DNA of 5,202 bases from a virus (lineage: Duplodnaviria; Heunggongvirae; Uroviricota; Caudoviricetes), in IMG/VR virus record IMGVR_UViG_2671180275_000007. One strand, given 5' to 3'. The position numbers and the translations under genes are program-made. This document shows, one piece after another, positions 155 through 4,470 of the stretch. The notes below the pieces were generated by a model, which was not told the DNA's origin, searched no databases, and saw nothing but the letters and a program-made list of their open reading frames with translations. Within the stretch, counting starts at the first letter, position 1; the number at the start of each line of letters is the position of its first letter.

Positions 155-502
155 TTAGCCAGCATTGCGGCCTGATCGGGATGATTTTTGGGTAACGTCG
201 ATTGAAGCCAGATCGCCCTCCGACTGAGAAGATCCATCAAGAGAGAGAGCCGGGGCAATTTGACCCCCAGCTTCAAACGTTTCATCAGTTGTTAACCAAA
301 GTGCATATTTTTTAAAACGTAAATTTTTTGTGATCTTTAATAAGATCTCACTTCCGATTCCATCTTGCCTTCCCGTTTCGTAATACCTCTGCGTATTAAC
401 AGGAATCCCTGTAAGCTCAAAGAATTGCTTCCTTGTAAGCCTCTCACTTTTCCGGATCATCAAGATTTTTTCACCGATACTTATTGACAGTGTCGAATTC
501 AT
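155..502 (-). CDS. Immunity repressor, XRE-family helix-turn-helix, P2 C-like
   Basis: ORF track 155..553 (-); I place the start at the internal ATG (500-502), giving MNSTLSISIGEKILMIRKSERLTRKQFFELTGIPVNTQRYYETGR...FKKYALWLTTDE...GGQIAPAL. The HTH lies 8 aa from this N-terminus, and the block pattern (EKI..MRKSE.L.R.Q...LTG.P...YYE.GR, KY.LW, GQIAPAL) matches my recollection of the P2 C repressor. GAGGA lies 10 nt upstream of the 502 ATG on the minus strand; the ATG at 541 and TTG at 553 have no RBS. Stop TAA at 157..155. Confidence 0.85.
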   Translation of the reverse strand: MNSTLSISIGEKILMIRKSERLTRKQFFELTGIPVNTQRYYETGRQDGIGSEILLKITKNLRFKKYALWLTTDETFEAGGQIAPALSLDGSSQSEGDLASIDVTQKSSRSGRNAG

Positions 503-513
503 ACCACTAAAAT
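484..513 (+). promoter_or_regulatory. Candidate sigma70-type early (Pe-like) promoter: TTGACA-18 bp-TAAAAT
   Basis: Perfect -35 TTGACA at 484-489 and -10-like TAAAAT at 508-513 with 18-bp spacer, oriented toward the Cox-like gene (predicted start near 520). It overlaps the first codons of the repressor gene, compatible with P2/186-type overlapping switch promoters. Sequence motif only; no transcript data. Confidence 0.4.
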
Positions 514-603: not shown

Positions 604-1128
604 ATGCGGAAGTCAATTGCCGATAAAGAGTTATCTGACACACAAGCCCTTCAGGAAAACGACAGCATCACCGAATCCGTTGGTGCGGAAAACGACGATG
701 AACACCAAGAGGAAAAGAAAAAACGCACCTACAAAAAAGGGGCAACCTTGCGACTGGATGGCCCGGTAGCCGGACTTTGCTCACTTGAAAAAGGGGCAGC
801 CTATATCGGGTTGACAAAAGCTGCATTGCGCGTGGCGCTTCAGCGAAATCAGATGCCTGGACACAAGACCCGTTCAAACCCTGAAGATGAAAATTCGGAT
901 GGCGTATGGTGGTTTAACGCCAGAGAGTGGGACAAGCTGGCTGACGAACTACCAGAATGCGAGCCGCCAGAATGGCACAACTGGAAAAGCTACTGGACGT
1001 ACGACCGACAGAAAAGAAAGTTTTCCCCGGCAAACAAAGAAGACTGCCAGACCATCAATGGAAAGCGGGTTTACACAGGAAGAAAGTCAAAACTGGAGCA
1101 ACACCAATACAGCGAAGGCAACCAGTGA
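604..1128 (+). CDS. cox: Cox/Apl-like winged-HTH regulator/excisionase with acidic N-terminal and W/K/R-rich C-terminal extensions
   Basis: ATG 604 with AGAGGA 6 nt upstream. Central segment LEKGAAYIGLTKAALRVALQRNQMPG...GVWWFNAREWDKL has the HTH-plus-aromatic-wing pattern of P2 Cox as I recall it (AKLIGKSTGAVRRMIDKGKLPV...GEYWVYLPAWN) and of excisionase-type HTH domains. First gene to the right of the repressor, as for cox in P2. At 174 aa it is about twice the length of P2 Cox; an internal TTG at 745 with an AAAGGGG Shine-Dalgarno-like sequence would give a shorter Cox-sized N-terminus (alternative start). Confidence 0.65.
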   Translation: MRKSIADKELSDTQALQENDSITESVGAENDDEHQEEKKKRTYKKGATLRLDGPVAGLCSLEKGAAYIGLTKAALRVALQRNQMPGHKTRSNPEDENSDGVWWFNAREWDKLADELPECEPPEWHNWKSYWTYDRQKRKFSPANKEDCQTINGKRVYTGRKSKLEQHQYSEGNQ

Positions 1129-1399: not shown

Positions 1400-1750
1400 A
1401 TGAAGCAACAACGAAATGCGCGCATCCATAACAACACTGAACGCCACAAATTGCGCAGTGGCGCAGAACGCAACGTTGCGTGTCAGTCCCACCGTAAAAA
1501 TGGTGCGACCGCAACCACTGAAATCCATGCAACACCTGACGGCCGCCCTGTAACACAAACCGGCAAACACACCTGGACGGTTGGCGATACCGGCATCGTC
1601 ATTCACAAAAGCCTTCGCAGCCCTGTTACTGGCAGATTTAATTTTTCTCTGACACGGGGTGATGAATATTTCGGGCAGGACTTCACACTTTTTGAAGCCT
1701 TAAGGACAGCAGACCGCCTGATAAACGGAAGAAGTTTTCACAACAACTAA
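1400..1750 (+). CDS. Hypothetical protein (116 aa), basic polar N-terminal half
   Basis: ATG 1400 preceded by AGGTGA (3-nt spacer) and AGGA (11 nt); fills the gap between neighbouring genes on the operon strand. N-terminal 60 aa are unusually polar/basic and contain two DNA palindromes (1452-1465, 1468-1481), so coding status is less certain than for the neighbours. Confidence 0.45.
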   Translation: MKQQRNARIHNNTERHKLRSGAERNVACQSHRKNGATATTEIHATPDGRPVTQTGKHTWTVGDTGIVIHKSLRSPVTGRFNFSLTRGDEYFGQDFTLFEALRTADRLINGRSFHNN

Positions 1751-1763
1751 CGCGGGTGGAAAT

Positions 1764-1988
1764 ATGAAAAAATATTATCTTTATGAAAGCACACGTGAGT
1801 CCGGGATAATTAAAATAAGTAGTATTAGCTCTGCTACCAGACATGACCGTGAAGTAAAAATTATTCTTAAAGAAGGTGTTGAAATTAATTTGATTACTGA
1901 CACGGAAAGCAACGCTGTTAAATGCGTAAGCGCAATAATAAAAACCATTAAAAATAGATCAAATCCTGCGGACTGGATTGTATTTTAA
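1764..1988 (+). CDS. Hypothetical protein (74 aa) in a sharply AT-rich segment; candidate horizontally acquired moron
   Basis: ATG 1764 with GGTGGA upstream. The ORF is visibly AT-rich (roughly one-third G+C by eye) against a roughly 50% G+C background. Protein MKKYYLYESTRESGIIKISSISS... is I/K/S-rich with no motif I recognise. Confidence 0.5.
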   Translation: MKKYYLYESTRESGIIKISSISSATRHDREVKIILKEGVEINLITDTESNAVKCVSAIIKTIKNRSNPADWIVF

Positions 1989-2012
1989 TCACAGGAGAGA
2001 AAGGAGACAGAC

Positions 2013-2252
2013 ATGAACAACCACTACAAACAATTAGTGAATTTGCTCCTTGAGCGCCACAGTTTTTCACTGGCAAAAACAAACGGAGAAAATAAAACTG
2101 CCGCCGACAACTCCCTGATACTGGGCCTCAGCGGGTTACAACAGGCAGCATTCTGCGCTGACGACAGTGAGGCGCTTACCGAAATAAACGAGCTCATCAG
2201 CCAGATGGATATTGATGGGTACATCCAGCCCTACAATCTGGCGGTCGTATGA
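2013..2252 (+). CDS. Hypothetical protein (79 aa)
   Basis: ATG 2013 with a strong AAGGAG Shine-Dalgarno 6 nt upstream (2001-2006). Stop TGA 2250-2252 overlaps the next start (ATGA). Confidence 0.65.
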   Translation: MNNHYKQLVNLLLERHSFSLAKTNGENKTAADNSLILGLSGLQQAAFCADDSEALTEINELISQMDIDGYIQPYNLAVV

Positions 2253-2353
2253 GTTCAACATTAATCATTATCGCGTCATGGGTGATATTACTGGCGTCAT
2301 TCGTTGTTTCTTATTTCGTGGTGAAGCTGCTTACTCAATATTTAAATCTGTAA
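2249..2353 (+). CDS. Unannotated 34-aa hydrophobic single-pass membrane peptide (MSSTLIIIASWVILLASFVVSYFVVKLLTQYLNL)
   Basis: Not in the ORF track (below length cut-off). ATG 2249-2251 overlaps the upstream stop as ATGA; own translation gives one about 21-residue hydrophobic helix with a short polar tail; stop TAA 2351-2353. Segment is AT-rich. Size and composition resemble phage Kil-type or type I toxin-type membrane peptides. Confidence 0.45.
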   Translation: MSSTLIIIASWVILLASFVVSYFVVKLLTQYLNL

Positions 2354-2401
2354 CAGCAAATGAACTTCCGATAACACCAGAACACACATGAACAGTTAAT
2401 T

Positions 2402-2438
2402 AAGGCATTCATGCCTTCGGGTTCCCTTTGTCTTTTTT
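2402..2438 (+). terminator. Candidate attenuator/weak intrinsic terminator or palindromic protein site: AAGGCATtcATGCCTT then T-tract
   Basis: Near-perfect 16-bp palindrome at 2402-2417 (6-bp stem, 4-nt loop as RNA), preceded by the TTAATTAA palindrome (2396-2403) and followed 13 nt later by TCTTTTTT (2431-2438), just upstream of the RBS of the next gene. The T-tract is not contiguous with the stem, so not a canonical terminator. Confidence 0.3.
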
Positions 2439-2450
2439 CAGGAGACAACA

Positions 2451-3271: not shown

Positions 3272-3499
3272 ATGGTCGCCATCCTGAATATGCGTTGCCG
3301 CCCCCCCCTGAACGTGGAAACAAAAGCCCGCACGTCTCTGCGCTTATTTCGCAACGGAGCGCGGAATTTTTCACGCATAAAGCCCCACGACTACCTGGTC
3401 ATAAGAATCGGTTTTCGCTGGCGATTACTGAGCAAAAACAACGGGAAGTCATGGGATTTATTAACGCACGAAACCTATAACAGAGAGGCCGCGTTATGA
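3272..3499 (+). CDS. Hypothetical basic protein (75 aa) containing a C8 homopolymer tract; coupled to dam
   Basis: ATG 3272 with GAGGTG 5 nt upstream; stop TGA 3497-3499 overlaps the dam ATG 3496-3498 (ATGA). R/K-rich product (MVAILNMRCRPPLNVETKAR...). The C8 run at 3301-3308 encodes RPPL. Coding status rests on RBS and coupling geometry only. Confidence 0.4.
   Translation: MVAILNMRCRPPLNVETKARTSLRLFRNGARNFSRIKPHDYLVIRIGFRWRLLSKNNGKSWDLLTHETYNREAAL
3301..3308. repeat. Homopolymeric C8 tract (G8 on the minus strand)
   Basis: Read directly: gccgCCCCCCCCtg at 3297-3310; the only homopolymer of 8 or more G/C I can see in the window. Lies 30 nt into ORF 3272..3499. Confidence 0.9.
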
Positions 3500-4470
3500 G
3501 CGAAAAACTGTTATCCGGCACACCGCTGAAATGGGTGGGCGGAAAAAACCGCATCATGGACACACTGAAGGCGCACCTGCCAGAAGCTGACTGCCTGGTT
3601 GAGCCGTTCGTGGGTGGCGCATCGGTATTCATGAACACCCGTTACAGCCGCTGCATCCTTGGAGATTCCAACGGTGCGCTGATTAATTTCTGGCGGGCAG
3701 CACGGGACAACACCGACAGCCTGATCGATGAGGCAAAAGACCTGTTCCTGGAACATAACAACAGGGCTGACTATCTCGCCATCCGCAACACCTTTAATGC
3801 AGAGAATCATGCATTCCTGAGCACGGGAATAAGCGACCGCCGTGAACTGCGACTGGCCGCCATGTTTTTGTACCTCAACCGGCACTGTTTTAATGGCCTG
3901 TACCGGGTGAACGGAAAAGGTGATTTTAACGTGCCTTTCGGCGGCTACCGAAAACCCTACTTCCCTGAGCGGGAAATCCGCGCATTTGCAGACAAGGCAA
4001 ACAGCACCCAAACGCTGCTTGTTCATGGCGATTTTCGAAAAACGCTGAGCTGTGCCAGCCACCTGTTCAGCATGGGTAACACGCTTTGCGTGTACTGCGA
4101 TCCCCCTTACCTGCCATTCAGTGGCCGGGACAATTTCACCGCCTATGGAAAACCCTTCACGAAGGACGACCACATTCGCCTGAGAGCAGCGCTTGACCGC
4201 CTTTCACAGGAAACGGGCGGCATGACCAGCATCACCATCTCCAATTCCGACACACCGGAAACCAGACGCATTTATCAGGGTTACCGGATGAACTGCATAC
4301 AGGCACCACGAAGCGTTGGCGCAAGAACCAGTGAACCCGCAATGGAAGTTATCGCCACCCTGAAGCAGTGCGACACCTGCGGTCGCCATGGCGGTGGCTG
4401 GTGCCCGGACTGCGGCCCGGCGACGGGAGATGCAACGTACAGCGCGATGTTTACCTCTGCTCACCCGTGA
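3496..4470 (+). CDS. dam: DNA adenine methyltransferase, Dam family (GATC N6-adenine MTase), with about 45-aa C-terminal Cys4 extension
   Basis: Strong block-by-block match to E. coli Dam as I recall it: LKWVGGK (Dam LKWAGGK), CLVEPFVGGASVFMNT, FLYLNRHCFNGLYRVNGKGDFNVPFGGYRKPYFPE, catalytic VYCDPPYLPFSGRDNFTAYG (DPPY), ISNSDT. Extra C-terminal tail contains CDTC-x7-CPDC (nt 4369-4413). Antisense ORF 3511..4173 is spurious. Confidence 0.95.
   Translation: MSEKLLSGTPLKWVGGKNRIMDTLKAHLPEADCLVEPFVGGASVFMNTRYSRCILGDSNGALINFWRAARDNTDSLIDEAKDLFLEHNNRADYLAIRNTFNAENHAFLSTGISDRRELRLAAMFLYLNRHCFNGLYRVNGKGDFNVPFGGYRKPYFPEREIRAFADKANSTQTLLVHGDFRKTLSCASHLFSMGNTLCVYCDPPYLPFSGRDNFTAYGKPFTKDDHIRLRAALDRLSQETGGMTSITISNSDTPETRRIYQGYRMNCIQAPRSVGARTSEPAMEVIATLKQCDTCGRHGGGWCPDCGPATGDATYSAMFTSAHP

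Follow-up and report, generated by a model that had tools for sequence, protein, structure and literature searches.

A moron is an inserted gene whose two flanking genes are direct neighbors in related phages. In phage P2, the morons or accessory genes old, tin and Z/fun form autonomous units located at old/tin and Z/fun, which the prophage expresses, and the early operon is driven by the early promoter Pe. Here we analyzed a 5,202-nucleotide (nt) stretch of DNA (IMG/VR record IMGVR_UViG_2671180275_000007, Caudoviricetes), the whole of which is referred to as the window, and which is the left arm of an Escherichia coli P2-like prophage of the P88/Xuanwuvirus type. The gene under study, designated ORF74, is an open reading frame (ORF) running from an ATG to a TAA at positions 1764-1988 of the plus strand and coding for a protein of 74 amino acids (aa) with an isoelectric point (pI) of 9.2. 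A first-pass annotation had given its coordinates and translation exactly and had regarded it as suggestive of a recently acquired moron. Similarly to P2 old, tin and Z/fun, ORF74 has a G+C content (GC) lower than the backbone of the phage and occurs in some relatives but not in others. In contrast to these autonomous genes, it lies inside an early operon without signals of its own and has positional homologues. ORF74 is unlikely to be a freshly inserted foreign moron. The explanation that we favor on balance is that it is a real but rare gene of a defined slot, coding for a presumably early-expressed binding module with a predicted pleckstrin-homology (PH)-like fold and exchanged as part of a cassette, and we hold the evolutionary and structural description with good confidence.

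The compositional island reported in the first-pass annotation is real. The GC of ORF74 was 0.320, compared with 0.498 for the entire window and 0.511 when the variable cassette described below (GC of the cassette, 0.405) is left out, and the deviation corresponded to a binomial z of −5.7. In the sliding-window analysis, the 225-bp minimum (0.32) started at position 1760, and only 0.14% of the windows were that low. The third codon position was the most extreme (GC1, 0.347; GC2, 0.360; GC3, 0.253), and the rare codons ATA, AGA, AGG and CTA made up 8.1% of the ORF, the top value in the window. The island had been described as ending close to the ends of the ORF. This was the case on the left, where the edge of the dip was located at approximately 1731-1741, within about 30 nt of the start, but not on the right, where the GC over 40 bp stayed below 0.46 until approximately 2090, about 80 nt into the downstream gene. 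The AT-rich patch that had been noticed over a micro-ORF at 2249-2353 was reproduced (GC 0.352). The statement that the product had no recognizable motif also held, since ORF74 was unmatched in Pfam, PHROGs, NCBIfam and the PADLOC hidden Markov models (HMMs) of known anti-phage defense proteins.

ORF74 is situated between a gene for a DUF4761 family protein of 116 aa (1400..1750, plus strand; Pfam PF15958, E = 2e-29; phrog_2492), which forms the left anchor of the slot, and a gene for a DUF4754 family protein of 79 aa (2013..2252, plus strand; Pfam PF15946, E = 7e-13), which is an outlier allele. BLASTP detected no relationship between ORF74 and the protein found in the same slot of locus L019. 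The Smith-Waterman score of this pair was 75 against a shuffle mean of 26, none of 3000 shuffles scored as high (Gumbel p = 3e-6), and the alignment was ungapped over residues 1-62 of both proteins, with IVF at both C-termini. Smith-Waterman comparison with shuffles also connected ORF74 to the slot protein of L021 (p = 6e-4). A profile search with the three sequences yielded 18 clusters, consisting only of proteins of 70-78 aa, which formed three subfamilies and whose named members were all from E. coli. ORF74 is the sole member of subfamily 1, and subfamily 2 ('METYKIK...IVF'; P0080-83, P0088, P0090 and P0091) and subfamily 3 ('MTTDHIAIDNGKVI...ICFTEM'; P0075-79, P0084-87 and P0089) are annotated as hypothetical proteins.

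The members of subfamilies 2 and 3 share with ORF74 the size, the low GC, the identical slot and the 13-nt spacer after the DUF4761 gene (L097 and L100), and they occur in prophages at the prpC and pdxB sites. They align co-linearly with ORF74; residues E30, A51 and I58 are invariant, the C-terminus has an I-x-F, and a hydrophobic I/L-x-F was present at the C-terminus throughout the family alignment (A4). On the other hand, they are only 21-27% identical to ORF74, are mostly acidic whereas ORF74 is basic, and travel with a different DUF4754 clade. Within subfamily 2, the differences clustered in the last approximately 30 residues. The GC of the two sister subfamilies was 0.31-0.39, compared with 0.43-0.48 in their flanks; thus, low GC was shown to be a trait of the whole ORF74 family. 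The first-pass annotation had named conservation of the ORF with unchanged composition as a finding that would speak against acquisition. The sister subfamilies come close to this situation, and their presence in the identical slot at prpC and pdxB contradicts the idea of a foreign one-off. These results show that ORF74 represents the rarest of three subfamilies of an undescribed 70-78-aa family fixed to one slot of the early operon.

The family also bears on whether ORF74 is a gene at all. According to the alternative, the island would serve as a regulatory patch, such as a nucleoid-protein site, or as a mere AT-rich spacer without coding function, and the ORF would be there by chance. AT-rich DNA is often bound by H-NS in enterobacteria, a weak promoter-like site is present at 1783-1810, and the ORF-length test alone gave a p of only about 0.01 (when the 262-nt island was shuffled 5000 times with its dinucleotides preserved, 47 of the sequences contained, in one frame or another, an ORF of 74 aa or more). 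However, the ORF is kept in three subfamilies that are about 25% identical in protein, with indels of whole codons, and was intact in 18 of 18 family clusters. GC3 was lower than GC1 and GC2, the dN/dS ratio (nonsynonymous to synonymous substitution rates) within subfamily 2 was 0.49, below 1, and a Shine-Dalgarno-like GGTGGA is placed at the right distance upstream of the ATG. The identical ORF74 protein was called on at least 428 contigs, and its variants comprised 12 rare missense changes and one frameshift. ORF74 was thus shown to be a genuine protein-coding accessory gene of an E. coli P2-like prophage, above all because homologues with 21-27% identity keep an intact ORF of the same size and because the family alignment leads to a confident fold, and a chance ORF is very improbable. 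The antisense ORF at 1781-1948 was also considered and was rejected as a usual by-product of an AT-rich coding strand, its sequence not being conserved across the subfamilies.

The occupancy of the slot was surveyed using DUF4761 as the anchor. A total of 80 viral-contig loci and three genome loci were collected, and the gap between DUF4761 and DUF4754 was measured in 97 loci in total. That the scan of genome contigs gave no more than these three loci is explained by the family being essentially restricted to Escherichia and its close relatives. A small gene filled the slot, with a gap of 246-310 nt, in 83 of the 97 loci, 13 of which were of the window's own type, and in the remaining 14 loci the flanking genes were adjacent, as a moron would require, with an empty junction of 18-38 nt. 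These 14 included the nearest relatives, L002 and L003, which share the dmsA attachment site, lack ORF74 and have a gap of 18 nt. The slot gene appears to be dispensable, since empty junctions exist. The other occupants included a 92-aa phrog_3800 protein (type A), an 84-aa protein weakly resembling DUF4754, and the AT-rich 71- and 78-aa ORFs of L019 and L021. The order DUF4761-slot-DUF4754 was constant at the dmsA, prpC and pdxB sites despite differing integrase, repressor and cox alleles. ORF74 was found in four of 5426 complete E. coli genomes, whereas phrog_3800 was found in 1355 of them; some gene is present in this slot in about a quarter of E. coli genomes. The 84-aa slot ORFs of L027, L050 and L093 (e.g., L027:2831-3085) begin with 'MATTTKDMAEIASAY...' and weakly resemble DUF4754 (Smith-Waterman p of about 1e-3), and such an ORF may be a tandem duplicate of the downstream DUF4754 gene. 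One further locus, L096 (NZ_JBQPOM010000071.1), titled Vagococcus sp. WN89Y, contained a P2-like early region of the E. coli type, in which a typical type A gene occupied the slot; its assignment to a Gram-positive Vagococcus is likely due to assembly contamination or misassignment.

The survey allows the moron claim to be judged. In its full form, this claim holds that a foreign AT-rich gene entered recently by illegitimate recombination between two adjacent phage genes and is expressed by the prophage to the benefit of the host. The contrast in GC (0.32 versus 0.51), the rare-codon load, the highest in the window, the rarity of the gene among complete genomes and its absence between DUF4761 and DUF4754 in the nearest same-site relatives are all in line with it, and the parts of the claim that concern a real compositional island and a genuine, rare accessory gene stand. 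Insertion into an otherwise empty junction is not supported, small genes occupying most of the related loci. The comparison of presence and absence at the same locus, which the first-pass annotation had proposed, gave adjacent flanking genes in the nearest relatives at the dmsA site and in 14 of the 97 loci overall, and an occupied slot in the other 83. Homologues of equally low GC occur in the same slot of other prophage lineages. Searches covering 1.84 billion protein representatives, 72,556 plasmids and 50,697 phage records gave no homologue beyond the P2-like prophages of E. coli; a tblastn search of ORF74 against the phage and plasmid records gave no match, and a word-indexed search of 5.8 billion proteins with ORF74 alone returned only its own cluster. 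The acquisition of a single ORF also fits poorly with the extent of the differing unit, which is a larger cassette including a divergent allele of a core-family gene, as described below. Finally, the promoter and terminator expected of a moron were not found flanking ORF74 by a simple consensus scan, and the spacers are short. The spacer between the DUF4761 stop and the ORF74 start (CGCGGGTGGAAAT; 1751..1763, plus strand), which contains the GGTGGA, is 13 nt long and leaves no room for a promoter, and that before the DUF4754 start is 24 nt. A recent moron is therefore an unlikely explanation of ORF74.

The tight packing of ORF74 into the early operon bears on its expression. A candidate early promoter, TTGACA-18 nt-TAAAAT, with 11 of 12 consensus matches in the scan, is located at 484..513 on the plus strand upstream of the cox-like gene. 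By analogy with P2 Pe, ORF74 is likely transcribed from this promoter, which would occur after induction or infection. Because ORF74 is packed into the early operon, no expression in the prophage is expected, and a repressed prophage would not express it.

When the window was compared with L002, L021, L097 and L100 by blastn, homology was lost at 1714-1774 and was regained at exactly 2371 in all four cases. The hypervariable cassette so defined (approximately 1715-2370, plus strand; 656 bp; alignment A1) contains the last approximately 12 codons of DUF4761, ORF74, the divergent DUF4754 allele and the micro-ORF, and its flanks are 84-92% identical to those of the relatives. In the identity matrix, the DUF4754 allele of the window was at most 38% identical to the alleles in other cassette types. 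Loci with the identical ORF74 carried one of two repressor genes, coding for a 113-aa protein that matches HTH_3 or for a 115-aa protein without a Pfam match (positions 4396-4737 in L004 versus 4392-4739 in L007). The presence of two repressors alongside an identical ORF74 indicates that recombination of the cassette is independent of that of the immunity region. Across 283-542, the sequence of the window differs from that of L002 as well, and, together with the two repressors, this difference indicates that the immunity region is a second, independently recombining variable segment. The pattern of the cassette is more in keeping with related phages having exchanged old alleles by way of their conserved flanks than with illegitimate acquisition. 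Homologous recombination among such phages, rather than the insertion of foreign DNA, would thus have brought the cassette into this lineage.

The composition of the cassettes also speaks to another alternative, in which ORF74 would be a dedicated partner of DUF4754 or DUF4761, such as a regulatory subunit or an antidote-like protein, rather than a protein targeting host or rival-phage proteins. ORF74 and the DUF4754 allele of the window are both outliers contained in one cassette, and the tight gene packing allows coupled translation. However, the DUF4754 proteins of L019 and L021 are 81% identical, whereas their slot proteins belong to different subfamilies and have no significant pairwise similarity, indicating that the slot gene diverges or is exchanged faster than its DUF4754 neighbor. 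In addition, there are cassettes that contain DUF4754 but no slot gene, and DUF4761 alleles with 84-100% identity accompany different slot contents. A neighbor-partner role is therefore improbable.

The common type A occupant of the slot, phrog_3800, which is carried by P88, Xuanwuvirus P884B11 and Citrobacter phage Shae_phiSM, was compared with ORF74. Both lie between DUF4761 and DUF4754 and have a GC below that of their flanks, and, judged by eye, the order of putative strands and helix, namely several strands, one long helix and a final strand, looks similar in the two proteins. The phrog_3800 protein is longer (92 aa) and shows no significant sequence or profile similarity to ORF74. It is conceivable that ORF74 and its sisters are extremely diverged homologues of phrog_3800, and that a single fast-evolving gene has occupied the slot throughout. 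The L021 protein was co-linear with type A (Smith-Waterman p of 1e-3 to 6e-3), and hhalign placed residues 11-42 of ORF74 on residues 17-52 of type A, which is the expected register. However, the hhalign probability was 0.6% with an E of 0.099 for a single comparison, direct comparison of ORF74 and the L019 protein with type A was not significant, and the phrog_3800 HMM was unmatched by any family member at E up to 5. The link to phrog_3800 was therefore not adopted, being unsupported both by hhalign of the family against the type A alignment and by the HMM. One ancient slot family remains a tentative reading, which is a refinement of the favored explanation and is compatible with it.

The structure of ORF74 was predicted with AlphaFold2 (AF2). 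With the single sequence, the mean predicted local distance difference test score (pLDDT) was 56, which is too uncertain to use; the strand and helix order was the same as in the model from the alignment. With the 18-sequence alignment, the pLDDT was 86.8 and the predicted template modeling score (pTM) was 0.73, and all five models scored 80-87. The model has strands at residues 2-7, 15-17, 21-27, 30-35 and 39-44, a helix at 48-63 and a strand at 71-73. ORF74 is thus predicted to adopt a minimal PH-like fold, in which an antiparallel sheet of five strands is followed by a C-terminal helix and a short last strand. The predicted model shows the defining features of the PH superfold, an antiparallel beta-sandwich capped by a C-terminal helix and superposable on known PH domains, and Foldseek aligned it with the PH domains of ARAP2/3 and with FERM F3 domains at a template modeling (TM) score of about 0.6. 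A fold search of BFVD gave weak matches and no named neighbor.

Compared with the PH superfold as a whole, which includes the eukaryotic PH, PTB and FERM-F3 domains and the bacterial PHb domains (Pfam PF08000; PMC2817789), ORF74 has no sequence-level membership. The only PH family matched was PF25401 (PH_27), by one of the 18 members, with an E of 0.13 and 13 bits against a 27-bit cut-off. PH domains are also typically larger than the 74 aa of ORF74. A literature search on DUF4761, DUF4754 and prophage PH domains yielded nothing relevant except the paper on bacterial PH domains.

The sequence searches had pointed to an entirely different fold. In that interpretation, residues 19-56 of ORF74 form an ankyrin (ANK) repeat that binds a target as eukaryotic-type ANK proteins do. 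Phmmer against the 1.84 billion representatives returned ORF74 itself together with ankyrin-repeat proteins (28 matches), all six of those scanned were ANK proteins with E-values down to 9e-14, the top sequence matches in the PDB were designed ANK proteins, and none of 1000 shuffles reached the real score. However, the individual repeats contributed only 7-12 bits each, and the E-values were sums over up to ten near-identical repeats; shuffled queries obtained 47 and 35 bits in the same way against the same targets. The Pfam Ank models were unmatched at E up to 10, the confident model has beta-strands and not helices over residues 21-44, and the sister subfamilies show beta-hairpin patterns in this region, e.g., EITIFLINNTEITIVE. 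An ankyrin-like fold is thus scarcely credible, and the similarity was effectively refuted by the shuffles, Pfam and the predicted fold as a chance motif likeness inflated by repeat summing. Repeat proteins can generally yield spuriously strong phmmer E-values with a short query.

As for function, ORF74 may be a small, early-expressed module that is dispensable and binds proteins, its target being a protein of the host or of a rival phage; we consider this functional step possible but doubtful. The contact surface would likely consist of strand 5 and the helix, the most variable part between alleles, and would set the target specificity. An accessory advantage in host takeover, counter-defense or exclusion would follow. 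Several points weigh against the favored explanation. The Foldseek E-values were weak (0.07 or higher), the fold rests on an alignment of 18 sequences with an effective number (Neff) of about 2.4, and, where the canonical fold has seven strands ahead of the helix, the model has only five, with a further strand following the helix. The PH-like architecture is common and does not dictate function. Neither ORF74 nor its family matched any annotated family in the databases listed above. Net charge is not conserved, the pI being 9.2 for ORF74 and about 5 for most relatives, which argues against one shared electrostatic binding mode. With respect to expression, AT-rich DNA can hide promoters from a consensus scan, and the assignment of transcription to the 484-513 promoter is based on the P2 paradigm.

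In a more speculative extension, to which we attach little probability, the slot would be a hypervariable specificity locus of P2-like coliphages, holding interchangeable mini PH-like binders, possibly including the phrog_3800 type, each of which would neutralize a different host-defense or rival-phage protein early in infection. If so, these proteins would constitute a previously unrecognized family of phage counter-defense or exclusion factors whose alternative alleles are maintained by an arms race, and if they are allele-specific binders of host or phage targets, the slot could be added to the variable loci already known in P2-like phages as a site to examine for counter-defense or exclusion functions. 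A small family not covered by Pfam or PHROGs is now defined, with a confident predicted fold and a fixed genomic address. The present case also illustrates that compositional islands need comparison with relatives before they are read as insertions: what forms the island here is an allele of a gene that diverges fast within a recombining cassette, and the low GC is inherited with the family.

The remaining part of the cassette is the micro-ORF (2249..2353, plus strand; 34 aa), the start of which overlaps the DUF4754 stop as ATGA. Its product is strongly hydrophobic (grand average of hydropathicity, 1.67), as expected of a single transmembrane helix. An ORF of 41 aa that overlaps in the same way, as ATGA, is present in relatives (L002, 3559-3684; L098, 5468-5593), and because of this the micro-ORF appears to encode a genuine small membrane peptide, translationally coupled and missed by most gene callers. 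The right boundary of the cassette is a conserved non-coding element of 80 bp (2371..2450, plus strand), to which 91-92% matches were found in further E. coli genomes (H19-H28) otherwise unmatched by the query. It includes a hairpin, AAGGCAT-TC-ATGCCTT, just upstream of the ribosome-binding site of the next gene. The hairpin folds no better than shuffles (z = −0.35), and an Rfam scan of the window gave no match, either to this element or elsewhere.

In complete genomes, the element adjoins dmsABC, and the replication gene A is located further to the right; the cultured relatives include phage P88 and Xuanwuvirus P884B11. The window opens with the start of the integrase gene, which ends at approximately position 85 on the minus strand, followed on the same strand by a helix-turn-helix (HTH) repressor gene. 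The rightward operon is headed by a long cox-like gene (604-1128, plus strand), after which a 64-aa ORF precedes DUF4761 on the same strand. The cox-like protein has 174 aa, compared with 93-100 aa in L097 and L100, with an acidic N-terminal extension and a basic C-terminal tail, and only residues 58-129 match Phage_Cox (25.3 bits, under the Pfam cut-off of 27.5). Downstream of the micro-ORF, the operon continues with a 77-aa ORF, an Rv2179c-like exonuclease gene, a gene for a ParE-like protein, a Dam methylase gene and further small ORFs. The ParE-like toxin-domain ORF (PF24732; 3272-3499, plus strand) has no evident antitoxin and was called unevenly across the loci (75, 69, 61 or 46 aa, or uncalled). 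It overlaps by 4 nt the start of the Dam methylase gene (3496-4470, plus strand), the product of which ends in a Cys-rich C-terminal tail, CDTCGRHGGGWCPDCG.
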